Shown in pieces: positions 5,237-54,092 of a stretch of DNA of 64,000 nt. The notes under the pieces were generated by a model that was not told the DNA's origin, ran no database searches, and saw only the letters and a program-made list of their open reading frames with translations. The stretch's first letter is position 1, and every line of letters starts with the position of its first letter. Location of the stretch: NCBI GenBank assembly GCA_036505875.1, contig DASXSR010000324.1, positions 2,225 through 66,224 of the forward strand. Direction: 5' to 3'. The stretch comes from Blastocatellia bacterium (GTDB lineage: Bacteria; Acidobacteriota; Blastocatellia; UBA7656). A program made the position numbers and the translations under genes.

Positions 5237-5322
5237 GTTCGTAGTCCCGCCTTCAGGCGGAGGTTCGTACTTAACGAAGGGACATGCGATACAAACTTCC
5301 GCCTGAAGGCGGGACTACGAAC
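5237..5322. repeat. 86-bp nested inverted repeat (element D)
   Basis: Arm GTTCGTAGTCCCGCCTTCAGGCGGAGGTT (5237-5265) versus AACTTCCGCCTGAAGGCGGGACTACGAAC (5294-5322): 28 of 29 positions complementary. Each arm contains its own mini-palindrome CCGCC-TTCA-GGCGG. It lies in the divergent gmhA/bla-like intergenic region. Confidence 0.85.
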
Positions 5323-10272: not shown

Positions 10273-11436
10273 TTAAATCGTCTCGATCAAGCGTGTGAGC
10301 AGGGCCGCGCGTCGAGGTATATCAGGGATGATGATGTGCTCATGCTCGGCGTGGGCGCCCGCGCCGTCCACTCCCAACCCGTCGAGCACAGGGACGCCAA
10401 GCGCCGCAATGAAGTTTCCATCAGAGCCTCCGCCCACCGAGCCCTCCTGAAGATTGAGCCCAATTTCGGCAGCCAATCGCTTTGCGCGCCCAAACAGCTC
10501 TCCGGCCTCGGTCGTCCGAACCAGCGGCGGACGATTTATTCCGCCGCGCACTTCGATGCGAGCGCCGTCAAGAACCGGCTGCAGATTCGCAAGCGCTTCA
10601 GTGATTCGATAGCCTTCGTCGACGGTCGCAAACCGCATGTCAATGAAAGCGTGAGCTTCCGCGGCGATCACATTTGAAAGCACTCCCCCTCGCGCGACGC
10701 CGACGTTGAGTGTTGTTCCGCGCGCGTAATCGTTCAGCTTGTTGATCGCCAGGACCTGATGCGCAAGCTCGGTAATCGCGCTAACACCTGCTCGAGGATC
10801 GTTGCCGGCGTGAGCCGGGCGGCCGCGAATTATCAGCTCGAATTCGCCGACGCCTTTTCGCCCGGTCTTGACCGTCCCTCCAGGTATCGGCGGCTCGAGA
10901 ACCAGCGCAGCGTGCGAACGACGTGCTTCGTCTTCGACAATATTGCGTGAAAAGTGGCTGCCGGTTTCTTCGTCGCAAGACATCAGCAACGTGACACGTC
11001 TCCGAGTACGCAGGCCGAGGTCTTTGATTGCTCGCATGGCAAAAGTGGCGAGCATCACGCCGGCCTTCATATCGAAGATGCCTGGTCCGAACGCCCGATC
11101 GCTTTCGACTTTGAAGGGACGGGTTGCGAGCGTGCCAAGAGGCCATACAGTATCCAGATGCCCAACGACGAGTAGCTGCTTGTCTTCCGCCGACGGTTTG
11201 TCAGGGCAGTCGAACCGCGCGACCAGCGTCGATCCGTAAGCGGGGTCGCTGAACAGTTCAATGGCCGCCCCATGCCGACCGAGCGCCTCACCGAGATTCT
11301 CGGCGATCCGTCGCGTGGCTTCGGGCTCGCGCGACATCGACTCTTGTTCGACCAACCAGCGGGCGAAACCGAGCATCTCCGGAAGACGATCATCAAAATA
11401 AGACAATAGCGAAGGGACGCGAGGATCGTTTGTCAT
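10273..11436 (-). CDS. M20-family metallopeptidase (glutamate carboxypeptidase-like)
   Basis: 387 aa with metal-ligand motifs GHLDTVWP, CDEETGS and HAGNDP. Confidence 0.85.
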   Translation of the reverse strand: MTNDPRVPSLLSYFDDRLPEMLGFARWLVEQESMSREPEATRRIAENLGEALGRHGAAIELFSDPAYGSTLVARFDCPDKPSAEDKQLLVVGHLDTVWPLGTLATRPFKVESDRAFGPGIFDMKAGVMLATFAMRAIKDLGLRTRRRVTLLMSCDEETGSHFSRNIVEDEARRSHAALVLEPPIPGGTVKTGRKGVGEFELIIRGRPAHAGNDPRAGVSAITELAHQVLAINKLNDYARGTTLNVGVARGGVLSNVIAAEAHAFIDMRFATVDEGYRITEALANLQPVLDGARIEVRGGINRPPLVRTTEAGELFGRAKRLAAEIGLNLQEGSVGGGSDGNFIAALGVPVLDGLGVDGAGAHAEHEHIIIPDIPRRAALLTRLIETI

Positions 11437-11551
11437 CGCTCCTTTTTAGCAGAGCGTCTGGCACTCATGCCAGCAATCGCTTGTCTGGGCGCAGCCGTCC
11501 TTGCCTGCTGGTTGGTGGCTATGGCAGCAGACAGGTCTGCGCTCCCAGGGA

Positions 11552-12034
11552 CTACTTGTTTTGCAGCGCAGTGTCGATAACAGAAGCGAGGTCGTTGACG
11601 AAGTCGGAATTAGGATTGAATCCGCCGCGAGGCCGGCCAACCGGGTTGCCCTGGCGGTCCAGAATGACGATGGTCGGAAGTTGGCCGCTCTTCCCGCTGA
11701 GACGCTTGAAGGCCGCTTGGCTTGTATCGCGCAATACCACAACCGACTTGGCTGCGCCGCAGGGGTCACCGGTGGGGCCAACGTTCACCCAGTAAATGCC
11801 AACGTCCTTTCCTTGGACCCGTTCAGCAAGCGTCTCGAGCGCCTTAAACCCGTCGCGGCACTGTGGGTCCTGAGGACCGCTGAACATCAGCACGATCACC
11901 CTTCCGCGCAAGCTCGAAAGAGTGACGGTTTGTCCATTGGAGCCCGTGAAGCCGAAATCTTGCGCACTAGCAGAAATTACGGCTAGCGCTATGATTGCAA
12001 TCGCTACAACTATTCTCTTGACTCTGTTCACCAT
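11552..12034 (-). CDS. Thioredoxin-fold (TlpA/redoxin-like) periplasmic protein lacking a canonical CxxC
   Basis: Start set at ATG 12034 (MVNRVKRIVVAIAIIALAVISASAQ signal peptide). Redoxin-like layout (LRGRVIVLMFSGPQDPQC...), but only single Cys residues. Confidence 0.6.
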   Translation of the reverse strand: MVNRVKRIVVAIAIIALAVISASAQDFGFTGSNGQTVTLSSLRGRVIVLMFSGPQDPQCRDGFKALETLAERVQGKDVGIYWVNVGPTGDPCGAAKSVVVLRDTSQAAFKRLSGKSGQLPTIVILDRQGNPVGRPRGGFNPNSDFVNDLASVIDTALQNK

Positions 12035-15286: not shown

Positions 15287-17500
15287 GTGGGTGTGAGCAT
15301 TGATAGTTTGATCAAAGAGGCGCACACTAAAATCGGACACTTTAAGATAGGCGCAGCAGGAAGGAACCTTATTTTGAGAAACGACAAAATCGCAACCAGC
15401 GCAGTTCTCGTTCTGGTGATGACGCTGGCGGTGAGCACGAAGGCGAAACCGGCTCCAGGAGCCGATTTCAGGGCACAGGACAAACAGACGCAGGACAAAC
15501 AGACGCAGGGCACTGACAAGCGCGCGGAAGCGCTGAAGAAGTACCTGGAGGCTCAGCGGCTCGAACAAGCAGGCAACTATTCCGGAGCGGTGTCGGCTTA
15601 CAAAGAAGCGCTGGCGCTGGACCCGAAATCGATCGAGCTGAGAATCGCGCTCGGCTCCTTGTACCTGAAGAACCGAAACGTCATCGACGCCGAGACGCAA
15701 GCGCAGGAAGCGATGAAACTGGCGGCGGATAATGTCGACGCGCGCAAATTGCTGGCGCGGATCTACCTCGCGCAGACCTTCGTTGGAACGACAACGGTAA
15801 AGGAGAAGGCTCGCGCGGCGCTCAAGGAGTTGGAAGAAGTCGCGCGTTTGAACCCAAGCGCAAAGATCGAAGTGGGCGATCAAGAGCAGCCGGTGCTTGC
15901 CGTTATCGGTGAGCTGTATTACACGCTTGACGAGCCCGACAAGGCGCTGGAGGCGTTGAAGCGGGTTTCTGAGGGCAGCTCGACCGCAGACCGCGCGCAT
16001 TTTCAGCTTGCAATGCTTTACTTTCAGAAGAACAAGTTCCGCGAAGCGGCGGCGACGGCGCGCAAGGCTTACGACATAGACCCGAAGTCTACCCAGTATG
16101 CGGGGCTGTTGGCTAAGTCGCTATTGCGAATCGGTCGCTCACAAGAAGCCCTGGATATTTACAAGAAGGCTATTGGAATCAAAGATACGACTGGCAAAGA
16201 GACCAAGCTCAAACCCAAACCTTCCGATGACAAGGAAGACAAGGATGACGAAACCGGCACGCTGATCAGCTCGCCGTTGTTTTTCGACTACACCGAGGCG
16301 TTGGTTTACGCCGGTCGCTACGAGGAAGCGAACAAGGTGCTCGATCCGGTCATGAAGGCTGTTCGCAAGGACACACCGGTTTATCTGAATATAGTCAAGT
16401 ATAAAGCGATCGTGCTGCGGCGAACCGGCAAGCGAGAAGAAGCCGCCGGGCTTCTCGAATCGGCTCTTAAGGGTCAGGACGTATCGGAAAGCCTCGAGGT
16501 GTTGTTCTCGCTGGGTGAGACCTACGAGGAGATGCTTCAATTCGACAAAGCAATCTCATCGTATGAAGAAGCGCTGACATCGATCGTAAATCCTGATGGA
16601 ACGGTCGGCGGCCGCGAGCAAGACAAGCAGGCCGCCGAGGTTGTGCTTCAACGTATTGGCGTGGCTTACCGAATGGCCGGCAAGCGCGACAAGGCGATGG
16701 AAACCTTCGAGCGGATGAAGAAGGTCGTTGGCAAGGACCGCCCTCGCGCTGACCAATTGATCGTCGACACGCTGATCAACGAAGGCAAATACAAAGAAGC
16801 GCTCGCGGCGGCGACCGAGGCTGCTACGCGATTTCCCGACGAGAGGTCGTTCAAGTTCTTGCGCGCGCAGGCGGCCGGAAAATTGGGCGAAACGTCGACC
16901 GCCGATTCAACTCTGAAATCGATGTTGAAAGATGCGCCTGATGACGCTGACGTCTATCTGTTCTGGTCGAGCGTCCAACTGGATGCCAACCAGGTGAAGG
17001 AAGCTGAAGAGAGCGCGCGCAAAGCGGTCGCTATCGAACCAAACGACATTGGCCCGCTTGTGACTCTCGCCAGCGTTCAAGACCGTGAGAAGAAGTACAA
17101 GGAATCCGAAGCGACGTTAAAAAAGGCGCTCGAGATTGATCCTGATAATGCGACGGTTTTGAACAACCTCGGTTACTTCCTCGCCGATCGCAACGAGCGA
17201 CTGCCTGAAGCTGAGGCGCTGATACGTCGCGCCGTGAACATCGAGCCTACTAACGGCTCGTTCCTAGATTCGCTGGGGTGGTTGTTGTATAGGCAGGGCA
17301 AGCTTGGCGAGGCGCAGAAGTACCTGGAGCAGGCAGTGATTTATCAGGCGCGCTCAGCAACGATTCACGATCACCTCGGCGACCTGTATAAGAAGCAAGG
17401 CCAGATGGACAAGGCTCGCGCTAAGTGGGAAGATGCGCTCAAGCTTTCGAGTGACCCGGAAGAGACGAAGAAGATCAAGGAGAAGCTGGGAAGGAAGTAG
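15287..17500 (+). CDS. Secreted TPR-repeat protein
   Basis: 737-aa ORF. The likely true start is TTG 15374, which has GGAAGGAA upstream and gives the signal peptide RNDKIATSAVLVLVMTLAVSTKA. Many TPR units (e.g. AEALIRRAVNIEPTNGSFLDSLGWLLYRQGKLGEAQKYLEQAV). Confidence 0.85.
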   Translation: MGVSIDSLIKEAHTKIGHFKIGAAGRNLILRNDKIATSAVLVLVMTLAVSTKAKPAPGADFRAQDKQTQDKQTQGTDKRAEALKKYLEAQRLEQAGNYSGAVSAYKEALALDPKSIELRIALGSLYLKNRNVIDAETQAQEAMKLAADNVDARKLLARIYLAQTFVGTTTVKEKARAALKELEEVARLNPSAKIEVGDQEQPVLAVIGELYYTLDEPDKALEALKRVSEGSSTADRAHFQLAMLYFQKNKFREAAATARKAYDIDPKSTQYAGLLAKSLLRIGRSQEALDIYKKAIGIKDTTGKETKLKPKPSDDKEDKDDETGTLISSPLFFDYTEALVYAGRYEEANKVLDPVMKAVRKDTPVYLNIVKYKAIVLRRTGKREEAAGLLESALKGQDVSESLEVLFSLGETYEEMLQFDKAISSYEEALTSIVNPDGTVGGREQDKQAAEVVLQRIGVAYRMAGKRDKAMETFERMKKVVGKDRPRADQLIVDTLINEGKYKEALAAATEAATRFPDERSFKFLRAQAAGKLGETSTADSTLKSMLKDAPDDADVYLFWSSVQLDANQVKEAEESARKAVAIEPNDIGPLVTLASVQDREKKYKESEATLKKALEIDPDNATVLNNLGYFLADRNERLPEAEALIRRAVNIEPTNGSFLDSLGWLLYRQGKLGEAQKYLEQAVIYQARSATIHDHLGDLYKKQGQMDKARAKWEDALKLSSDPEETKKIKEKLGRK

Positions 17501-18294: not shown

Positions 18295-19179
18295 ATGTCC
18301 TCCTTGTTTCAAGTTAATTCCTACGCCAAAATCAACTGGACTCTCGACATACTCTTCAAGCGTGAGGACGGCTATCACGAGCTTCAAACGATCTATCAAA
18401 CTGTTTCACTTCACGACCGACTTCGAATTACCGAGAGCGCCGACGCAATCGAAATAGCTTGCGACGATCTGCGGGTTCCCTGTAATGAGACCAATCTGAT
18501 CTTTAAAGCTGCGACGTTGCTGCGCGAAGCTGCGCGCATTACAAAGGGGGCGCGGATTGAGATCGATAAACGCATTCCCGTAGCGGCTGGGTTGGGTGGC
18601 GGGTCTTCGAACGCCGCAACTACCCTTTTGGCATTGGTCAAACTGTGGCGGCTTGAAATCGATCAACGCGAGCTTACTCGAATCGCTTCGGCGCTCGGTT
18701 CAGACGTGCCCTTCTTTTTGATCGGAGGCACTGCAATGGGTGTGGGCAGAGGCGAACAGGTCCATCCGGTTGAACAGGTTTCCCGCGAACATTTGCTGCT
18801 CGTTAATCCCGGGTTCGCAGTCTCTACTCGCGATGCCTACGAAGGCTACGCGCGGTTGACAAGGCCAGAGCCGGCTTCTATCATGCCTTTTACTTTGCCG
18901 ACCGCTAACGGCGTCCGTGAGCTGCCGCTTGCGGCGAGAAACGATCTCGAAGAGGTTGTGCTCGCCAGCTACCCAGAAATCGCGGAAGTCAAACGCCGGT
19001 TGATAGCCGCAGGTGCAAGGCACGCGGTGATGTCCGGCAGCGGCGCAACTGTCTTTGGGGTCTTTGATAATTCGCAGGTTACCGAGCGAGCCGAGTCCGA
19101 GATGCGCGCGCTCGGTTACTGGACTGAGCGTGTGCGAACGGTTGACCAACAGGAGTATCAGGCCACGATCTTCTCGTGA
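18295..19179 (+). CDS. ispE: 4-diphosphocytidyl-2-C-methyl-D-erythritol kinase
   Basis: AKINWTLDI...REDGYHEL...IPVAAGLGGGSSNAA (GHMP kinase motif). Conserved ispE-tRNA-Gln-prs-rplY-pth synteny. Confidence 0.9.
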   Translation: MSSLFQVNSYAKINWTLDILFKREDGYHELQTIYQTVSLHDRLRITESADAIEIACDDLRVPCNETNLIFKAATLLREAARITKGARIEIDKRIPVAAGLGGGSSNAATTLLALVKLWRLEIDQRELTRIASALGSDVPFFLIGGTAMGVGRGEQVHPVEQVSREHLLLVNPGFAVSTRDAYEGYARLTRPEPASIMPFTLPTANGVRELPLAARNDLEEVVLASYPEIAEVKRRLIAAGARHAVMSGSGATVFGVFDNSQVTERAESEMRALGYWTERVRTVDQQEYQATIFS

Positions 19180-19245
19180 GCGGAGTCACACGCAAGAGTC
19201 TACCAAGCGGTTTAGCTGGTCTTTCTGGTAACGCGGCGCTTCGAA

Positions 19246-19251
19246 TATAAT
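19246..19251 (+). promoter_or_regulatory. Consensus -10 hexamer upstream of tRNA-Gln
   Basis: TATAAT at 19246-19251, 18 nt before the tRNA 5' end. The -35 region (TTCTGG at 17-nt spacing) is weak. Confidence 0.35.
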
Positions 19252-19268
19252 CCTTGTCAGACTAACAC

Positions 19269-19343
19269 TGGGGAGTCGCCAAGCGGTAAGGCAGCGGCCT
19301 TTGGAGCCGCCATCCGGAGGTTCGAATCCTCCCTCCCCAGCCA
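19269..19343 (+). tRNA. tRNA-Gln (anticodon UUG), CCA encoded
   Basis: Cloverleaf read by hand: acceptor TGGGGAG/CTCCCCA, D arm GCCAAGCGGTAAGGC, anticodon stem GCGGC/GCCGC with loop CT-TTG-GA, T arm GGAGG-TTCGAAT-CCTCC, discriminator G, then CCA. Confidence 0.95.
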
Positions 19344-19359
19344 AATTCGAGAATCGAAG

Positions 19360-20364
19360 ATGGAGGATGGAGGATCGATCCTCGATCCATCCCTCCTCGA
19401 TCGTCTTTCTTGTGGGGGCTGTGTGAACAACATCAAAGTCTTTTCGGGAAATGCGAACCGGCCGCTTGCTGAGGAGATCTGTTTTCACTTGGGGATCGAG
19501 ATCGGCAAGGCGCAAGTCGGGCGGTTCTCCGACGGCGAGTTCAACTTTCAGATTCTGGAGAACGTTCGCGGAGAAGACTGCTTCATCGTTCAACCGACTT
19601 GCCCGCCGGTCGATTCGAACGCGATGGAGTTGCTGATCATGCTCGACGCGTTTAGGCGGTCGTCGGCGAAACGGATCACGGCGGTGATACCGTATTACGG
19701 GTACGCGCGCAAGGATCGGAAGGATCGGCCACGAGTTCCGATCTCGTCGAAGCTCGTGGCGAATCTGATAACGGGTGCTGGAGCGGATCGTGTGCTGTTG
19801 TTCGATTTGCACGCCGGTCAGATTCAAGGGTTCTTCGACATACCGGCTGACCACTTGTTTGCGGCGCCCGTGCTGGTTGGGTACTTCCAGTCGTTGGAAT
19901 TGCGCGACCTCACGGTGGTTGCGCCCGACGCGGGAGGCGTCGAACGAGCCCGCGCTTATGCGAAGCGATTGAGCGCGGAGCTGGCGATTATCGACAAGCG
20001 TCGCGACTACGAGCGACTTGGTGAGGTCGAGGTGCTTCACGTGGTCGGGGATGTCGAGGCACGAACGGCGCTGATCGTAGACGATATGGTGGACACTGCA
20101 GGGACGTTGGTCAAAGCAGCCGAGGCTCTCAAGGAGAACGGCGCAAAAGCGGTGCTTGCTTCTGCTACGCACGCAGTGCTTAGCGGGAATGCGATTCAAC
20201 GAATCGAGGATTCGGTGATCGAGCAGTTGGTGGTGACCAACACTATTCCCACCGAGTCCGCTTGCCGCTCGCCCAAGATTAAATGCCTGAGTGTGGCGAA
20301 GCTGCTGGCTGAGGCGATTTTATCGATACACGACGAGACATCAGTGAGTAAACTGTTTATTTGA
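19360..20364 (+). CDS. prs: Ribose-phosphate pyrophosphokinase
   Basis: [27 protein letters not shown] and [10 protein letters not shown] motifs. ATG 19360 lies inside a palindrome (GAGGATCGATCCTC, 19370-19383) just after the tRNA. GTG 19423 (VNNIKVFSG) matches the usual Prs N-terminus better. Confidence 0.9.
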
Positions 20365-20381
20365 AGGAAGCGATTTGATGA

Positions 20382-20451
20382 GTGACTCGTGATGCGTGAT
20401 TCGTGAAGAACCTACTCACGAATTACGCATAACGGATCACGAATCACTTTT
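20382..20451. repeat. Family A heptad-periodic inverted repeat (copy A1), terminator-like
   Basis: Left arm GTGACTC GTGATGC GTGATTC GTGAAGA, loop, right arm TCACGAA TTACGCA TAACGGA TCACGAA TCAC, then TTTT (20448-20451). Lies between prs and rplY. Confidence 0.8.
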
Positions 20452-20464
20452 GGAGTTCTAGGAA

Positions 20465-21142
20465 ATGATCAAGGACATAACAATCAATGCAAAGCCGCGC
20501 GACGGCGTAGGCAAAGGACCGACTCGCAGGCTGCGCGCGCAAGGAATGATCCCGGCCGCAGTCTATGGCGAGGGGGGAGACTCCGTGGCTGTGGCGGTGA
20601 GCGCCAAGGACATCGCGACGATACTGCGCTCGGACACGGGCCACAACACAATTTTCAAGCTCGCGCTGCCGCATGCCGACGGCGAGCCGGCAAATGTGAT
20701 CATCAAAGACTATCAGGTCGATCCTGTACGCGGCCGCTTGCTGCACGCGGACTTGTTTCGATTGTCCATGACGACGGTGACGCGAGTGAGCGTTGAAGTT
20801 GAGCCGGTTGGTGATCCGGTTGGAGTCAAGACCGAAGGAGGCATATTCGAGCTCCAGCTTCGCGAGCTTGATGTCGAATGTCTGCCGGGCGACATTCCCG
20901 AGCACTTGAAGGTGGAAGTGTGGAACCTCCACATCGGAGACCACGTGACCGTCGCCGATTTGATTTATGACCGCGAAAAAGTCAAGGTGCTTGCCGATGA
21001 AAGTCAGATAGTTGCCGGCGTGTTGGCGCCGCGTATGATCGAGGAAGTTGCGCCTGCGGCTGAGGTTCCTGAAGGCGAGGCTGCGCCTGCCGCCGAGCCT
21101 GAAGTAATCAAGAAGGGCAAGGCCGAGGAAGAAGGTCAGTAG
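20465..21142 (+). CDS. rplY: 50S ribosomal protein L25 / general stress protein Ctc (long form)
   Basis: 225 aa. N-terminus INAKPRDGVGKGPTRRLRAQGMIPAVYG... is typical of L25/Ctc. Acidic Ala/Pro/Glu-rich tail. Confidence 0.9.
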   Translation: MIKDITINAKPRDGVGKGPTRRLRAQGMIPAAVYGEGGDSVAVAVSAKDIATILRSDTGHNTIFKLALPHADGEPANVIIKDYQVDPVRGRLLHADLFRLSMTTVTRVSVEVEPVGDPVGVKTEGGIFELQLRELDVECLPGDIPEHLKVEVWNLHIGDHVTVADLIYDREKVKVLADESQIVAGVLAPRMIEEVAPAAEVPEGEAAPAAEPEVIKKGKAEEEGQ

Positions 21143-21205
21143 TCCGTAGTCCGTTGTCCGTAGTGAGCGGGAACGACTACGGACCGCTGACCACGGACTA
21201 AGGAC
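21142..21205. repeat. Family B heptad-periodic inverted repeat (copy B1)
   Basis: Left arm GTCCGTA GTCCGTT GTCCGTA GT, 11-nt loop, right arm AC TACGGAC CGCTGAC CACGGAC TAAGGAC. It fills the whole rplY-pth spacer from the TAG stop to the ATG. Confidence 0.85.
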
Positions 21206-21206
21206 T

Positions 21207-21794
21207 ATGAAGCTGATAGTTGGGCTTGGGAATCCGGGACGCGAATATGAAATGACGCGTCATAACATTGGGTTCTTGCTCGTTGACAACTTATTTGAGC
21301 GGGCCGGGGGTCGCCGCTTTCGCGGTGAAGCAAACGCGAAAGTTGCGGACGTCACGCTCGCTGGCCAGCGAGTGTTGCTGGTGAAGCCGCAGACCTTTAT
21401 GAATTTGAGCGGGGATGCCGTTCGACCGCTAGTTGAGCGGTACACCGACGCGAACGCCGCTGATTTGATCGTCGCTTGCGATGATGTAGCTCTGCCGGTC
21501 GGGATGATCCGCGTGCGAGCGCGGGGAAGCGCCGGCGGGCATAACGGACTGAAGTCGATAATTGAACGGCTGGGTACTCGGGAGTTCGCAAGAGTAAGGT
21601 TTGGTGTAAAGCCCGGCCATCCGGTCGACGATCTTGTTAGCTTTGTGCTTTCGCCGATTCCAACGCGCGGCCGCGACCACTTGGAGCAGATGCTCGATCG
21701 GGGCGCGGAAGCAGTGGAAGTAATCTTGACCGAAGGCGTCGAGCGCGCAATGGCGCGCTTTAATGAACGAGTGAAGAGTGAGAATGGTTCGTGA
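21207..21794 (+). CDS. pth: Peptidyl-tRNA hydrolase
   Basis: MKLIVGLGNPGREYEMTRHNIGF... is the canonical Pth N-terminus. Confidence 0.92.
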   Translation: MKLIVGLGNPGREYEMTRHNIGFLLVDNLFERAGGRRFRGEANAKVADVTLAGQRVLLVKPQTFMNLSGDAVRPLVERYTDANAADLIVACDDVALPVGMIRVRARGSAGGHNGLKSIIERLGTREFARVRFGVKPGHPVDDLVSFVLSPIPTRGRDHLEQMLDRGAEAVEVILTEGVERAMARFNERVKSENGS

Positions 21795-21869
21795 GGCGTG
21801 ATGCGTGATTCGTGAAACGATCGAACAAAATGACGGTTCACTAATCACGTTTCACGGATCACGAATCAC
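21791..21869. repeat. Family A inverted repeat (copy A2), terminator-like
   Basis: Left arm GTGAGGC GTGATGC GTGATTC GTGAAAC, whose first unit contains the pth TGA stop. An 18-nt loop, then TTCACTA ATCACGT TTCACGG ATCACGA ATCAC, followed by TTGTTGTTCTTTCTC. Confidence 0.8.
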
Positions 21870-21969
21870 TTGTTGTTCTTTCTCAAAGAGGTTCTACAAC
21901 GAACCTCCTTGCTCCGGCCTTGGAGACCGGGGCTTTAACCGAAGCGTTGCAAGCTGCGACGGGTAAACA

Positions 21970-22009
21970 ATTTCAAATCTCAAATTTGAAATTTGAGATG
22001 ACGTGAAAT
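21970..22009. repeat. Family C heptad-periodic palindrome (copy C1) in the rpsF leader
   Basis: ATTTCAA-ATCTCAAATTT-G-AAATTTGAGAT-GACG-TGAAAT. The 11-bp core stem is 21977-21987 paired with 21989-21999. Confidence 0.8.
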
Positions 22010-22063
22010 TCGTAACTCGATGTGGTTAGCAACTGAAGTAATCCAAAAGGAGGACACTCTCTA

Positions 22064-22498
22064 ATGAGAGTCTACGAAGTTCTGTTCATAATCGCTCCTA
22101 ACATCGAGGAGAGCGACATCGAGACCCTAATCACTCAACTGAGTGAGGTCGCAACCAACCAGGGCGCCCAGATAGCTAGAGTCGAACGAATGGGCCGCCG
22201 CAGGCTCGCCTACCCCGTTCGGAAATTCAACGAGGGCCATTACGTTGTGCTTACAGTTGAGGGAAGCGGCGCGGAGATTGCCGAGATAGAACGGCGAATG
22301 CGCGTGACCGACGCGGTGATTCGTTATATCACAATCCGGATCGATGAAGACTTGAAGCGCGCCGAAAAATTCCGCGTGCGTCGCGCCGCGCATGCCGCCG
22401 CGGCCGCGAGCACCCGACGCACTCGGCAGACCGAGCCCGTCCTTCCGATAGGCCGGGACGAAGAGGATGGGGAATCTGAAGAGCGGGAGGGAGAATAG
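22064..22498 (+). CDS. rpsF: 30S ribosomal protein S6 with long basic/acidic C-terminal tail
   Basis: [16 protein letters not shown]...[32 protein letters not shown]. Confidence 0.92.
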
Positions 22499-22499
22499 T

Positions 22500-22796
22500 A
22501 TGAGCAGCGAACCCAGAGAGCAGGGGCGCCGCGATGACCGTGGCGGCAGGCAAGGCGGCGGACAAGGCGGGCCTGCGCGACGCTTTGTGCGAGTGCGCAA
22601 GTCGTGCAGATTCTGCGCCGACAAAGTTGATTACATCGATTACAAAGACGGGCGATTGCTCGGCGGTTACATCCCCGAACGCGGGAAGATTCTGCCGCGA
22701 CGAATATCAGGCACCTGCGCGCCGCACCAGCGCATGCTCGCGACCGCAATCAAGCGCGCGCGCAACGCCGCGATTCTTCCGTTCAGCACGGATTAG
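22500..22796 (+). CDS. rpsR: 30S ribosomal protein S18 with Arg/Gly-rich N-terminal extension
   Basis: Start at ATG 22500, 1 nt after the rpsF stop. Core [60 protein letters not shown]. Confidence 0.92.
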
Positions 22797-22859
22797 TCCG
22801 TAGTCCTTGGTCCGTAGTCCGTAGCTGCAGCTACCGACTATGGACTACGGACCACGGAC
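22796..22859. repeat. Family B inverted repeat (copy B2), 64-nt near-palindrome
   Basis: GTCCGTA GTCCTTG GTCCGTA GTCCGTA GCTG | CAGC TACCGAC TATGGAC TACGGAC CACGGAC. Of 32 positions, 27 are Watson-Crick pairs and 2 are GU. It starts at the G of the rpsR TAG stop. Confidence 0.88.
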
Positions 22860-22880
22860 CAGCTAATGAGGATTTCATCA

Positions 22881-23459
22881 ATGGCACATATGGATGTTTT
22901 GCTTTGCGAAGACGTCGATAACCTTGGGCAGCGCGGGCAGGTAGTGCGTGTGCGCGCAGGGTATGGGCGAAACTATTTGTTGCCTCAGCGGCTGGCGATC
23001 GAGGCCAGCGCCGGGAACAAGCGCATGATCGACGAGCAGCGGCGGCTGCTTGTCAAACGCGAGGATCGCGAGCGCGTGTCGGCTCGAACTGAAGCCGAAA
23101 GGTTGCAGGGGCTCGAGCTGCGTTTCAATCGTCGTGTCGGCGAGCACGGAGTATTGTACGGGTCAGTGACGGCGCTTGATGTAGCCGAAGCGCTGAAGGA
23201 GCGCGGAGTGCCGGTTGAGCGCCGCAAGATCGGACTGCGCGAGCACATCAAAGAAATCGGCGAATATGATGTGGCGATCAGGCTACACCGCGACGTGGTG
23301 CCGGTAATCAAGGTAAGTATTCATAAGCTAGGAGAAGAGGAGAAGGCTCTGGAAATGGCTCCAGAAGCCGATTCTGCGGCATCGGAGGGTGTGGGCGTTG
23401 AGGCGTCAACGGAATCAACCGAGGCCGCTGTTGTCGATGCGGGAGCTGCCGAGGAGTGA
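22881..23459 (+). CDS. rplI: 50S ribosomal protein L9 with acidic C-terminal extension
   Basis: Start chosen at ATG 22881, which has GAGGA 8 nt upstream; the track ORF starts at 22866. MDVLLCEDVDNLGQRGQVVRVRAGYGRNYLLPQRLA is the L9 N-domain. Confidence 0.9.
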   Translation: MAHMDVLLCEDVDNLGQRGQVVRVRAGYGRNYLLPQRLAIEASAGNKRMIDEQRRLLVKREDRERVSARTEAERLQGLELRFNRRVGEHGVLYGSVTALDVAEALKERGVPVERRKIGLREHIKEIGEYDVAIRLHRDVVPVIKVSIHKLGEEEKALEMAPEADSAASEGVGVEASTESTEAAVVDAGAAEE

Positions 23460-23477
23460 TAACAACACTGCCGCCGG

Positions 23478-23520
23478 AGAATCTCAGATCTGAAATACTC
23501 GAACTTTGAGATTTCTGATT
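23478..23520. repeat. Family C-like heptad element (copy C2, degenerate)
   Basis: Units GAGAATC TCAGATC TGAAATA CTCGAAC TTTGAGA TTTCTGA. AATCTCA (23480-23486) pairs with TGAGATT (23507-23513). An internal palindrome CAGATCTG is present. Confidence 0.55.
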
Positions 23521-23522
23521 TG

Positions 23523-23549
23523 GCAGCCTCAATGGCTGTTATCTTTTTT
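23523..23549 (+). terminator. Rho-independent terminator after rplI
   Basis: Stem (G)CAGCC pairs with GGCTG(T), with a 5-nt loop, followed by TATCTTTTTTC (six T at 23544-23549). Confidence 0.55.
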
Positions 23550-23712
23550 CGTCGAAGGCTCGACTGACCTTGGTCTTCTTGTTATCATCGCGCGCGGAAT
23601 GCTGAGGGCACAGCGCTCCGCGGTGTAGTTGGTTGCAATCAAAACTCTTAGGTTGTCCCGCTCAAGTCGCACGCCTTACGGAATGGGTTCTCAAACAAAT
23701 ATAGGTTAAGAG

Positions 23713-25059
23713 ATGTCACGAACGGCCATGGGGGGTGATCCTTTTTTTGAGAAGGGTCTTCCGTCCAACATCGAAGCCGAACGATCTATTCTTGGCGCGA
23801 TCTTGCTCGACAGCCAAGTCTGCAATCAGGCGATCGAGCTCCTGCGCCGTGACGATTTCTTTTTGGACTCACACCGTCGAATCTTCGATAAGATGATAGT
23901 CCTCAGCGAGCGAATGACGCCGATCGATCTAGTCACGCTTCGCGAAGAGCTGCAGCGCGCTGGCGAGTTCGAACAGATCGGTGGCGCAACCTACATCGCG
24001 TCGCTGATTGACGGCGTCCCGCGCACCGACAACATCGAACCTTACGCGAGGATAGTCAAAGCCAAGTCGATGCTCCGCAAGCTCATCACCGCGTCTAATC
24101 AAATCGTCGCTCTCGCCTTTGAGGAAGAGGACGAACCCGATGTGATCATCGACAAAGCGGAACAGATGATCTTCCAGATCGCCGAAGATCGCGTGCGGCA
24201 GGGCTTTCAATACGTCGGCGACGTGGCGCATCGAAGGCTGGAGCAGATCGAGCAAATGGCCGGCCGGCCCGAGATGATCACCGGCGTGCCCACAGGCTTT
24301 ACCGACTTTGATCGAATGACCTCCGGTTTGCAGCGGCAAGAGTTGATCGTAATCGCCGGTCGGCCCTCTACCGGCAAGACAGCGCTGGCTTTGAACATGG
24401 CCCAGTACGCCGCAAAGAACGCCAACGTCGTTGGAATCTTCAGCCTTGAGATGTCAGCAGAACAGCTTGTGTCGCGATTGCTCTGCTCGGAAGCGCGGGT
24501 CGATGCGCACCGCCTGCGAACCGGCTATCTTAATCGCGAGGAGTGGGCGCGACTGGCCGACGCGCTGCGGCGATTGTGCGAAACGAAGGTCTACATCGAC
24601 GACACGCCGGGCATCGGAGTGATGGAGATGCGCGCGAAGAGCCGGCGACTCAAGGCCGAGCACGGATTGGACCTTCTGATCATCGATTACCTTCAGTTGA
24701 TGGCTGGGCGAGGGAGAATCGAGTCGCGGCAACAGGAGGTGTCGCAAATCTCGCGCGATCTTAAAGCGCTTGCAAAAGAACTGGAAGTGCCTGTCGTTGC
24801 ATTGTCGCAGCTTTCGCGTGCGCCCGAGCAGCGCACCGAGCACAAGCCTCAGCTTTCCGATCTCAGAGAAAGCGGCGCGATAGAACAAGACAGCGATGTA
24901 GTTGCGTTCATCTATCGCGAAGAACTCTACAACCCGACTGATGAGAATCAGGGCGTGGCCGAGTTAATCATCGGCAAGCAAAGAAACGGTCCGACTGGCA
25001 CGGTTCCACTAGCTTTCCTGAAAGAGTTTACGCGGTTCGAGAATATGTGGCGAGAGTGA
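23713..25059 (+). CDS. dnaB: Replicative DNA helicase DnaB
   Basis: 448 aa. [18 protein letters not shown]-domain, Walker A GRPSTGKT, and LIIDYLQLM...[23 protein letters not shown]. No intein. Confidence 0.95.
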
Positions 25060-25131
25060 TGCGTGATTCGTGATGCGTGATCCGTGACGCGAGACTGTCC
25101 GATCACGGATCACGCATCACGAATCACGGAC
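25056..25131. repeat. Family A inverted repeat (copy A3), perfect 25-bp stem
   Basis: Left arm GTGATGC GTGATTC GTGATGC GTGATCC GTGACGC, loop, right arm GATCACG GATCACG CATCACG AATCACG. Positions 25063-25087 pair perfectly with 25103-25127. The first unit contains the dnaB TGA stop. The element ends 12 nt before the mutM ATG. Confidence 0.92.
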
Positions 25132-25140
25132 AACTCTCCT

Positions 25141-25929
25141 ATGCCCGAGCTCCCCGAGGTAGAAAGCCAACTCCGCTATTTTCGCAGCACTGCTTTAGGC
25201 CAGTGCGTCGAGCGAGTCAGGATCACCTCTCCGAACATCATAAAAAAGCCCGCTGCTCAAGCGTTCGCGCGGGGGTTGCGCGGGCGATGTTTCCAACAGG
25301 CATCGAGACGCGGCAAGTACTTAATTGTCACCCTCGACAATCGCCGAACGATGATTCTGCATTTTGGAATGGGGGGTGATCTCGGCTACTATACGACCGC
25401 CAGGGACCGTCCGGAATATACGCGCCTTGAGTTCATTCTCAAGAACGGCTGGCGATTGGCATTCACTTGCCCGCGGAAAATCTGTCGCGTGATGCTGGTC
25501 GATAAACCCGACGACGTCCCAGCTCTTCGAGAGATGGGACCCGAGCCGCTCGGCGAATCTTTCAGCCTCGCGTTTTTCGAGCGCTTGATTGAAGAGCATC
25601 CTCGTCGTCAAATCAAAGCGCTCCTAATGGACCAGAGACTGATAGCCGGGGTGGGAAATATCTACGCGGATGAGATTCTGTTCGAGGCGCGAGTGCGCCC
25701 CGACAGGCTCGCATCGACTTTGAGCGAAGAAGAAATCAAGCGCCTTCATCGCGAGACGCGCCGCGTGCTCAGGCGCTCGATTCGGACGGCGGGCGACGAC
25801 AAGTTCCCCTCGGACTTTTTGTCATTGCGCGCCTCGCGCGGCAAGGGGTGCCCAGTCTGCGGAGGTCCCATCAAGAAGAAAACGATTGCCGGCCGCACGG
25901 CGCATTTCTGCCCTAGATGTCAGGTGTGA
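25141..25929 (+). CDS. mutM: Formamidopyrimidine-DNA glycosylase (Fpg/Nei family)
   Basis: Start fixed at ATG 25141 because Fpg/Nei enzymes need the N-terminal MPELPEVE (catalytic Pro after Met removal). C-terminal zinc finger CPVCGGPIKKKTIAGRTAHFCPRCQ. The track ORF from 25084 merely translates the hairpin. Confidence 0.9.
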   Translation: MPELPEVESQLRYFRSTALGQCVERVRITSPNIIKKPAAQAFARGLRGRCFQQASRRGKYLIVTLDNRRTMILHFGMGGDLGYYTTARDRPEYTRLEFILKNGWRLAFTCPRKICRVMLVDKPDDVPALREMGPEPLGESFSLAFFERLIEEHPRRQIKALLMDQRLIAGVGNIYADEILFEARVRPDRLASTLSEEEIKRLHRETRRVLRRSIRTAGDDKFPSDFLSLRASRGKGCPVCGGPIKKKTIAGRTAHFCPRCQV

Positions 25930-32500: not shown

Positions 32501-32576
32501 AGATCTGTTGGAGTTTAGCCGAATGTCCGGATTCGCGCGATGTTCTGGTGCATAAAGCAATCGAGGAGAGACGGAT

Positions 32577-32630
32577 CGAAAATCTCGAATCTCAAAGTTC
32601 AAATTTCAAATTTGAGATTTGAGACTTCGA
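32577..32630. repeat. Family C heptad-periodic inverted repeat (copy C3)
   Basis: Units TCGAAAA TCTCGAA TCTCAAA GTTCAAA TTTCAAA TTTGAGA TTTGAGA CTTCGA. Positions 32584-32597 pair with 32611-32624 (13 of 14), and TCGAA pairs with TTCGA at the ends. Confidence 0.85.
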
Positions 32631-48876: not shown

Positions 48877-48878
48877 GA

Positions 48879-48949
48879 GTGATGCGCGATCCGTAGTTCG
48901 TGAAGCAGTTCTTCGTTCGCGAATCACGCATCACGATTCACGCATCATT
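48879..48949. repeat. Family A inverted repeat (copy A4, degenerate), terminator-like
   Basis: Left arm GTGATGC GCGATCC GTAGTTC GTGAAGC, loop, right arm GTTCGCG AATCACG CATCACG ATTCACG CATCATT, then CTTTT (48950-48954). Begins 3 nt after the htrA-1 stop. Confidence 0.75.
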
Positions 48950-48965
48950 CTTTTACGAACTTCGC

Positions 48966-54048: not shown

Positions 54049-54092
54049 TTCGCGATGCGTGATCCTGAAAGGAGTCACGCATCACGAATCAC
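54049..54092. repeat. Family A inverted repeat (copy A5, short)
   Basis: Left arm TTC GCGATGC GTGA (tcc), 12-nt loop, right arm TCACGC ATCACGA A. 14-bp stem with one mismatch (54049-54062 with 54075-54088). Followed by TCTTTACTTTT, then the ATG at 54104. Confidence 0.75.

Follow-up and report, generated by a model that had tools for sequence, protein, structure and literature searches.

The DNA analysed here, called the window, is a stretch of 64,000 nucleotides (nt) from a Blastocatellia bacterium (contig DASXSR010000324.1), in which a block of genes running from prs to mutM is punctuated by long hairpins. We found that these hairpins share one architecture, namely a 7-nt unit repeated about four times, a loop of some 13 nt and then an array of the reverse-complement unit, with no conserved ends, target site or linked transposase. 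Our preferred explanation, to which we give a probability of about 0.6, is that the elements are inverted heptanucleotide microsatellite arrays that were born by slippage and persist as read-through hairpins within operons.

Inverted heptad arrays in the prs-to-mutM block

Tandem Repeats Finder (TRF) reported period-7 arrays, paired in opposite orientation, at every claimed element. At least one hairpin with tandem 7-nt arms was present at seven of the eight junctions between tRNA-Gln and mutM. The original prediction, which had placed such hairpins at the block junctions, thus stands, with one element added (D, absent from its list and the eighth of the block) and two, C1 and C2, found to be weak. 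The block thus packs eight hairpins into 6 kb of universally conserved, highly expressed genes. Six of the eight block elements fold far better than shuffled sequences and C1 and D weakly better; neither C1 nor C2, both of which are short, comes near the A and B elements in strength. The window contains 24 seven-periodic runs, against about 1.6 (0-4) in shuffles. Gene identities, assigned with NCBIfam, Rfam and ARAGORN, confirmed the gene order proposed earlier, with all genes of the block on the + strand. The block reads as follows, with the extents of the TRF arrays and the folding energies (dG) and z-scores of the elements in brackets.

ispE, + strand: upstream end of the block gene order
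19269-19343, + strand: tRNA-Gln(UUG) gene (Rfam/ARAGORN)
19348-19412, + strand: element D, units GATGGAG / CTCCATC, in the tRNA-Gln–prs spacer (TRF arrays 19359-19402; dG -35.7, z -2.6)
prs, + strand: between tRNA-Gln and rplY
20377-20447, + strand: element A1, GTGANNC units, loop and GNNTCAC units, in the prs/rplY spacer (TRF 20376-20406; dG -38.1, z -5.7)
20465-21142, + strand: rplY/ctc
21135-21209, + strand: element B1, TAGTCCG / CGGACTA units, the entire rplY/pth spacer (TRF 21135-21164; dG -39.7, z -5.9)
21207-21794, + strand: pth
21785-21869, + strand: element A2, A-type hairpin directly 3′ of pth (TRF 21790-21815 and 21838-21869; dG -41.9, z -5.5)
21967-22012, + strand: element C1, short and AT-rich (AAATCTC / AAATTTG ... 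GAGATTT), in the rpsF 5′ region (TRF 21969-21994; z -1.4)
22064-22498, + strand: rpsF
22500-22796, + strand: rpsR
22794-22860, + strand: element B2, B-type, rpsR/rplI (TRF 22794-22824 and 22831-22859; dG -45.3, z -6.3)
about 22881-23459, + strand: rplI
23485-23522, + strand: element C2, short C-type hairpin 3′ of rplI (from folding; below the heptad-hairpin threshold of the scan of relatives)
23521-23550, + strand: canonical intrinsic terminator, GC stem plus T6 (terminator scan)
23560-23588, + strand: promoter-like site for dnaB (promoter scan)
23713-25059, + strand: dnaB
25052-25138, + strand: element A3, dnaB/mutM, the longest element (TRF 25056-25091 and 25101-25130; dG -67.7, z -11.8)
25141-25929, + strand: mutM

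The arrays fill the spacer: they begin at the upstream stop codon, which they often supply, and end shortly ahead of the ribosome-binding site (RBS) of the following gene or cover it. At B1, A2, B2, A3 and a further element at 55.4 kb, the array includes this stop codon: the first unit of B1 holds the rplY stop TAG, that of A2 contains the pth stop TGA, that of B2 begins with the rpsR stop TAG and that of A3 carries the dnaB stop TGA. At the downstream side, A1 is followed by TTTT and then at once by the rplY Shine-Dalgarno (SD) sequence GGAG, the 3′ arm of B1 contains or adjoins the SD-like AAGGA and the ATG of pth, and the rplI SD GAGGA stands outside B2. The sequence therefore reads as described earlier, with the rplY SD right past the T-tract of A1 and the pth ATG adjoining the 3′ arm of B1. 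The mutM ATG, which had been placed 12 nt after A3, is about 10-12 nt past the last heptad and 2 nt past an outer stem, GAGAG/CTCTC. In the hairpin scan, 33 of 36 stem positions of A3 were paired. C1 is the weakest element, with only about two units per arm, and C2 folded together with the adjoining terminator reached a z of -3.5.

A T-rich stretch follows A2, and after it comes a conserved leader-like region before rpsF. This region (21870-21955, between A2 and C1) reads TTGTTCTTTCTCAAAGAGGTTCTACAAcGAACCTCCTTGCTCCGGCC...GGGGCTTTAACCGAAGCG with two small hairpins, is conserved in all close relatives though the hairpins on either side of it differ, and had no Rfam match at E <= 1. It looks like a promoter or leader of rpsF-rpsR-rplI, possibly an S6:S18 autoregulatory leader. 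Upstream of dnaB, positions 23560-23640 hold a promoter-like TCGACT-17-TATCAT with an upstream TG and then a hairpin, GCGGAATGCTGAGGGCACAGCGCTCCGC, which is conserved in essentially all Blastocatellia loci and may be a leader element of dnaB.

Relative to the remainder of the window, the block is a hot spot of these elements, which occupy 7 of its 8 junctions against about 4 of the 44 outside it (Fisher p = 2e-5; the junction counts are approximate). The junction of mutM with the next gene carries no heptad element. The four hairpins outside the block follow ordinary genes, which encode a HAD hydrolase, two HtrA-like proteases and a PIN-domain protein:

32570-32630: C-type heptad hairpin between two minus-strand genes (HAD hydrolase, EF-hand protein)
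48877-48950: A-type hairpin with a degenerate left arm, 2 nt past the stop codon of an HtrA-like protease gene
54050-54092: short A-type hairpin, about two units per arm, 8 nt past a stop codon
55362-55445: A-type hairpin between two + strand genes, the upstream stop TGA lying within its first unit

Two further repeats in the window are of another kind. A perfect 15-nt tandem repeat, CAGGACAAACAGACG x 2.3 (15476-15509), lies within a 737-aa open reading frame (ORF) at 15287-17500. An 86-nt near-perfect palindrome (5237-5322; GTTCGTAGTCCCGCCTTCAGGCGGAGG...), with 31 of 33 stem positions paired and no heptad structure, lies between divergently oriented genes for a SIS-domain protein and a class A beta-lactamase-like protein; it has the look of a repetitive extragenic palindrome (REP).

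We then compared the window with DnaB-anchored loci from public genomes (labelled L001 and so on), among them about 40 Blastocatellia loci. The comparison assigns the window to the class Blastocatellia of the Acidobacteriota. The window and 40 of these loci (654 kb) contain 225 long hairpins, 104 of which have heptad-periodic arms, while the remaining periods between 4 and 11 are each represented by one to four hairpins only. Among the 60 hairpins of 439 kb of outgroup loci (Bacillota, Patescibacteria, Planctomycetota, Gemmatimonadota and others), one was heptad-built. In a test independent of hairpin detection, 134 of 196 heptad arrays had an inverted partner within 90 nt. The typical element has a median stem of 27.5 nt (four units), a median loop of 13 nt and a total of 71 nt, with lengths from 27 to 169 nt. 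The single outgroup case (units CAGCTTC / GCTGGCA, between rplI and dnaB, L021 5545-5622) comes from a metagenome-assembled genome of a more distant member of the Acidobacteriota, whose DnaB is 61% identical, and the heptad habit may thus reach beyond Blastocatellia within the phylum. In a dozen of the DnaB-anchored loci (L018, L019, L026, L031-L033, L044, L046, L047, L054, L042 and L051) the DnaB match is split into two parts (residues 1-222 or 1-397, and 214/220-448) lying 1.2-2.5 kb apart; the insert begins right after the P-loop and reads intein-like (…GKAQPL…VIGVFPQGVKQIYKVTFSDGR…). The dnaB gene of the window is uninterrupted.

Position, polarity and unit diversity

A wider view was obtained from metagenomes with the pattern GTGANNC x2 ... 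GNNTCAC x2, which was found in at least 120 independent contigs with a GC content of 40-72%. The GTGANNC type is thus widespread in environmental contigs, a breadth that we infer from GC content alone. Viral contigs with the pattern numbered only 9 among 2.9 million. Context was counted after ORF starts that reached GTG codons inside arrays had been reset. Among the metagenome matches listed, only 5 of 166 elements lay inside genes by approximate gene calls, and the distance from stop codon to hairpin had a median of about 2 nt and mostly fell between -19 and +20. The junctions carrying elements were tandem, convergent and divergent in 92, 17 and 13 cases, against a background of 351, 58 and 57. 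Placement among these matches is thus roughly proportional to the junction types available, and a preference for intercistronic junctions, for which the original prediction had suggested a test, was rejected.

The elements have a fixed polarity, with the G-rich, stop-bearing arm first on either strand. The 5′ arm held more G than C in 86 elements versus 12, and in 60 versus 15 distinct non-A units. The same polarity appeared without hairpin detection, as arrays with a downstream inverted partner were richer in G than in C in 51 cases versus 3. Stop triplets occurred solely in the sense of the 5′ arm in 43 units and solely in that of the 3′ arm in 13. Since an array followed by its reverse complement reads alike on both strands, this polarity holds for transcripts from either direction. 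We have not seen the near-invariant polarity or the stop-codon anchoring stated in the literature that we covered.

The 104 heptad hairpins of the window and its Blastocatellia relatives comprise 58 unit types, so that the recurring thing is the architecture and not three sequence families; about 40 heptad hairpins with other units were also present in the metagenome loci listed. The discrete alternating families of the original prediction therefore do not hold; units also drift at orthologous junctions. It is literally true that no two neighbouring elements belong to one family; this is expected by chance, as 38 of the 210 orderings of AAABBCC avoid like neighbours (p = 0.18, or 0.23 with D included). 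The order D, A, B, A+C, B, ..., A also occurs in L024 and partly in other relatives, which means that it was inherited once and counts as one event. With p about 0.2, a meaning in the alternation was rejected.

Unit diversity also bears on whether the elements are read as DNA, as protein-binding arrays or as structural DNA (cruciforms, nucleoid, replication or recombination signals) recognised through a CGTGA-type core. Their strict symmetry on both strands, the fixed polarity and the strong conserved 5-nt core of the A type, with two variable positions, are all features that such a role would use. However, 58 or more unrelated units cannot share one sequence-specific binder, a 7-bp spacing would not phase sites on one face of B-DNA, and long loops generally disfavour cruciform extrusion. 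We therefore regard a role at the DNA level as very improbable.

The arms of the elements were tested in several ways. The variable positions of A-type units were complementary in 70% of cases, compared with 69 +/- 1% when right-arm units were shuffled; the arms are thus two arrays of the same unit family and not strict palindromic copies, and a strict mirror order of the variable dinucleotides was rejected (0.70 versus 0.69 in the null). Mismatches that would be G·U or A·C on the sense strand were equally frequent in the metagenome loci listed (92 versus 94) and numbered 95 versus 76 in the Blastocatellia sample, whose members are not independent; the lack of a G·U excess gives no support for a constraint on the sense RNA. 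Downstream T-tracts were about as frequent as in a mirror control, at 19 versus 14 of 115 and 18 versus 20 of 95 oriented elements. Beyond the last partial unit, the flanks of 118 A-type elements held at most 0.2 bit of information. In Rfam searches only tRNA-Gln was found, both at the gathering threshold over the whole window and at E <= 1 over 19150-25300.

These results bear on termination. A scan of the block for intrinsic terminators returned only 23521-23550, which with the promoter-like site makes up the sole pair of this kind in the block (23521-23588). The heptad stems and loops exceed terminator sizes, for which a short GC-rich stem and a loop of 3-8 nt are usual. The earlier argument that the elements cannot all be full terminators holds up, given operons conserved in about 40 loci, one canonical terminator in the block and no T-tract excess, and for the last of these reasons the terminator reading was rejected for most elements. 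A related alternative is that the hairpins act as terminators or attenuators that need no U-tract ('I-shaped' hairpins or clusters of them), each with partial termination. Such termination has reportedly been proposed in other phyla, and the position right after stop codons, the T-rich sequence after A1, A2 and D, and the hairpin plus conserved T-rich stretch found after pth in every relative would suit it. Nevertheless, T-tracts are no more frequent than in the mirror control, several elements sit without room for a promoter in operons conserved across bacteria, a separate canonical terminator stands beside C2, and typical terminators have far shorter stems and loops. We consider this alternative unlikely.

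Orthologous junctions and the origin of the arrays

The gene orders prs-rplY-pth and rpsF-rpsR-rplI are kept across about 40 Blastocatellia loci, and synteny from ispE to dnaB is conserved. Over the block, the window shares about 85% DNA identity with the nearest genome (L020/L030) and 72-76% with the next group. Nearer relatives carry heptad hairpins at the same junctions as the window; more distant Blastocatellia have short bare spacers (12-20 nt at prs/rplY) and no heptad hairpins. The arrays are lineage-enriched and dispensable in relatives.

The kind of hairpin at a junction varies among the relatives. At the D site they have heptad hairpins with other units (GCAGTAG, GGTTTCT, AGAGATC, GATGAAC). 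The prs/rplY junction is also A-type in L020, L024, L001, L003 and L008, and dnaB/mutM is A-type in L030, L024, L008 and L006. At rpsR/rplI the hairpin is B-type in L003, L005, L007, L008 and L024, A-type in L020 and L001, and of a GATTTTR type in L009, L002, L033, L046 and L054. At the A2 site some hairpin is present, with unrelated sequence. C1 has longer versions in L020 and L024, and a C2 counterpart is conserved in L020. The geometry of B1 at rplY/pth, from the rplY stop codon to the pth start codon, recurs in 12 genomes with eight unit types, the arms being matched in each. The unit is GTCCGTA in the window, L001, L003, L007 and L024, GTCATTK in L020 and L008, and GTCAGGG in L026 and L046; L054 is A-type, and the arrays of L010 and L017 are mixed. 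The mixed arrays include intermediate units such as GTCAGTA and GTCATTA, which fits drift plus homogenisation.

Length changes followed the unit. At rplY/pth, L007 has 21 nt more than L003. At rpsR/rplI, L007 is again longer by 21 nt (three units) than L003 and L005; its right arm consists of seven CTACTGA units, where theirs has four of CTACGGA, and its left arm is unchanged at three to four units, with one mismatch per unit as a result. Arrays thus lengthen and shorten by 7-nt steps, and re-homogenisation can affect one arm without the other. It is because of these step changes and this single-arm re-homogenisation that we favour slippage. L015 carries directly after dnaB a tract of about 400 nt (11367-11762) in which TGATTGA arrays are followed by TCAATCA arrays, a giant heptad hairpin.

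At some junctions unrelated hairpins have taken over, namely prs/rplY in L007 (a REP palindrome) and the site after pth in L001, L003 and L008 (GACCTAT-type). The REP, CCTGGGAGCGCAGGCATCCCTGCCTGC..., is non-heptad. Besides replacing the heptad hairpin at prs/rplY, it follows rplI in L007 and L009, and in L003 (11342-12214) and at the same junction in L007, REP palindromes flank a Y1_Tnp gene (IS200-like, of the type of REP-associated tyrosine transposases, RAYTs); this insertion sits at dnaB/mutM, where the window has A3. A second dispersed repeat, GACCTAT / ATAGGNCCTAT (for example AGGACCTATGCGACCTATATGACCTAT), is sometimes nested in an A-type loop. It was found in L001 at rpsR/rplI, dnaB/mutM and pth/rpsF, in L006 and L009 at dnaB/mutM, in L003 and L008 at pth/rpsF, and in L023 at rplI/dnaB. 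Small mobile repeats nested in heptamer arrays are known from cyanobacteria, and the GACCTAT repeat resembles them.

Such replacements raise the possibility that the heptad hairpins are themselves mobile or copied elements, similar to REPs and bacterial interspersed mosaic elements (BIMEs) or to miniature inverted-repeat transposable elements (MITEs), and that a hairpin-recognising enzyme spreads them, different types landing in shared permissive sites. This would account for unrelated hairpins at one junction (B- or A-type at rpsR/rplI, REP at prs/rplY in L007), for the REPs and Y1 transposase gene at dnaB/mutM in L003 and L007, for the occurrence of the GTGANNC type in contigs of 40-72% GC, and for the nesting of small GACCTAT repeats in A-type loops. 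However, A-type elements have no conserved termini, target duplication or fixed length, their copy number varies continuously and their units drift continuously, and viral contigs yielded only the nine matches given above. No Y1 transposase or RAYT gene was found in the window or in the flanks of any of 129 element-bearing loci. We regard spread by such an enzyme as rather improbable, somewhat more so than termination without a U-tract. As class assignments, REP/BIME was rejected for want of a fixed family sequence of 20-40 nt (58 unit types, lengths 27-169 nt); MITE, because conserved ends or flanks and a target-site duplication are absent and the element consists of arrays plus a variable loop; and a mobile element in general, with no conserved flanks, no RAYT near and few viral matches.

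In the explanation that we prefer, the arrays would arise in place from a seed hairpin, replication slippage multiplying 7-nt units in each of its arms. Complementarity between the arms would be kept because, beside genes, the only versions tolerated are those that form a hairpin and stop translation, and arrays would persist where they are harmless, behind stop codons and with stops in all three frames of the first-met arm; the asymmetry at their centre may keep them replicable. They would be transcribed through within the prs-rplY-pth and rpsF-rpsR-rplI mRNAs, where the hairpins could serve as barriers to 3′-exonucleases or as processing sites, and near-perfect stems such as that of A3 would be substrates of RNase III. 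At B1 and A3, whose 3′ arm overlies the RBS of the following gene, downstream translation would depend on ribosomes completing the upstream gene: when a ribosome terminates in the 5′ arm, it would unpair the stem at its base, and the following start site would become accessible. A stop-to-start hairpin opened by the terminating ribosome is the classical geometry of translational coupling. The rule that the G-rich arm comes first may reflect the requirement for a stop codon or, more speculatively, the avoidance of an unpaired C-rich, Rho-loading arm emerging first.

Such effects could also be what the elements are selected for. The hairpins would then be RNA devices within operons, acting as RNase III/E processing sites, 3′-end stabilisers or translational-coupling switches that tune the output of each cistron, and the heptad build would merely be the easiest route to a long stem. 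This agrees with the retention of a heptad hairpin, often with the same unit, at the same junctions between genomes 72-85% identical, with unit drift that alters both arms together, with the covering of the pth RBS by B1-type hairpins in 12 genomes, with near-perfect stems such as A3 (33/36) that would be cut by RNase III, with the translation-related genes that make up the hot-spot block, and with a like proposal for cyanobacterial hairpins (PMC2670836). On the other hand, G·U mismatches do not exceed A·C on the sense strand (92 versus 94), the loops are long and variable (median 13 nt), the variable unit positions are not mirrored beyond the shuffled null, and L007 tolerates a right arm of seven units against three to four with one mismatch in each. 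Moreover, the elements are missing from more distant relatives with spacers of 12-20 nt and, among the metagenome matches listed, are equally frequent at convergent junctions. We hold selected RNA devices to be possible, though tentatively.

Several observations weigh against slippage-born arrays as the full account. The unit type is kept at a given junction across genomes 72-85% identical in the flanking genes, which selection on the element fits at least as well as neutral concerted evolution does. Pure slippage falls short of explaining the hot spot in the block. The presence of CGTGANN at 40-72% GC could mean a sequence-specific partner or horizontal spread and not birth in place. In addition, the gene calls behind the context statistics came from a rough codon-usage caller and are approximate, and read-through, processing and coupling are all things that we infer. 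Unit persistence, the hot spot and the occurrence of CGTGANN across GC contents keep a selected RNA role alive as a minority possibility, and a role for an unknown factor to a lesser degree. A more far-reaching and doubtful version would see a cross-phylum class of self-extending palindromic microsatellites, with the G-rich stop arm first, selected as control points inside operons. These would halt stray ribosomes in all frames, keep C-rich RNA that loads Rho from being exposed, and either control access to the following RBS or guide cleavage by RNase III; CGTGANN would be the preferred 'solution', or the target of an unknown factor shared by many soil and freshwater lineages.

Significance and comparison with known repeats

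Among the long simple repeats of bacteria, those with a heptanucleotide unit are the most over-represented, and their function is stated as unknown in the literature. The over-representation of 7 nt among long simple repeats, with polymerase slippage as the proposed cause, goes back to Mrazek et al. 2007, as far as that work is quoted in PMC4679880. The present block offers a clean natural series, in which orthologous junctions from dozens of genomes show presence and absence, unit drift and 7-nt steps. If the hairpins affect mRNA processing or translational coupling, they would account for the way in which Acidobacteria, a major and poorly studied soil phylum, tune the stoichiometry of their operons; if they are neutral, they would be a good model of how slippage and hairpin constraints shape bacterial spacers. 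They also call for caution with terminator predictors, small-RNA predictors and assemblers. They merit study at the genome-wide and transcript levels for their density in a core operon block, their strict polarity, their stop-codon anchoring and the wide environmental occurrence of the GTGANNC type.

In the literature, which we covered incompletely, there was no description of such hairpins in Acidobacteria and none with their unit strings: strings such as GTGAAACGTGA and TAGTCCGTAGTCCG occurred only as coincidences in primers, and large surveys of tandem and inverted repeats mentioned neither heptamers nor Acidobacteria. REP and BIME elements are similar in being intergenic hairpins past stop codons, within operons and between convergent genes, that vary among relatives; the heptad hairpins differ in having no fixed sequence, length or ends and no RAYT nearby. 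As a functional analogy, the comparison with REP-like intercistronic hairpins made in the original prediction is a fair one, and it has already been proposed for the 7-bp hairpins of cyanobacteria (PMC2670836).

The TAACTGA repeats of Beggiatoaceae are likewise 7-nt and intergenic and also occur within ribosomal-protein operons (PMC4679880). They comprise 169 direct sets and one inverted set and lie just upstream of start codons (PMC4679880), whereas the Blastocatellia elements are inverted pairs anchored at stop codons. The GGGAATC / GGGGA(C/T)T heptamers of Xanthomonas and Nostoc are closer (Rehm et al. 2015, PMC4692102). About 90% of them are intergenic, and the GGGAATC repeats lie nearer to the upstream ORF (28 nt on average) than to the downstream one and stand mostly between co-oriented genes, with 16% at convergent and few at divergent junctions. 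They usually have about four units, form 70-75 inverted pairs per genome that are able to fold into stem-loops, and differ in length and sequence between sister species at the same junctions (PMC4692102). The Blastocatellia elements share the intergenic position near the upstream gene, the size of about four units, the inverted pairing and the variation between species. They differ in that the Xanthomonas repeats are one G-tract family studied as G-quadruplex formers, while the Blastocatellia units are of dozens of types, mostly not capable of forming G-quadruplexes, and concentrated in one operon block.

In structure, the Blastocatellia elements fit best with inverted heptad arrays similar to the short tandemly repeated repetitive sequences (STRRs) of cyanobacteria, and not with a terminator, a REP/BIME, a MITE or an Rfam family. 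STRR units include CCCCAGT, TTGGTCA and CAACAGT. Both kinds are hairpin-folding 7-bp tandem units in intergenic or intercistronic spacers of co-transcribed genes, STRRs being present in many copies per genome. The Blastocatellia elements come from another phylum, have other unit sequences and show a very high unit diversity; unlike many STRRs, which are direct arrays only, about two thirds of their arrays are in inverted pairs. The 7-bp units of STRRs form hairpins, for example, between hupS and hupL in four cyanobacteria, and the roles proposed for these hairpins are transcript stabilisation and translational coupling (PMC2670836).

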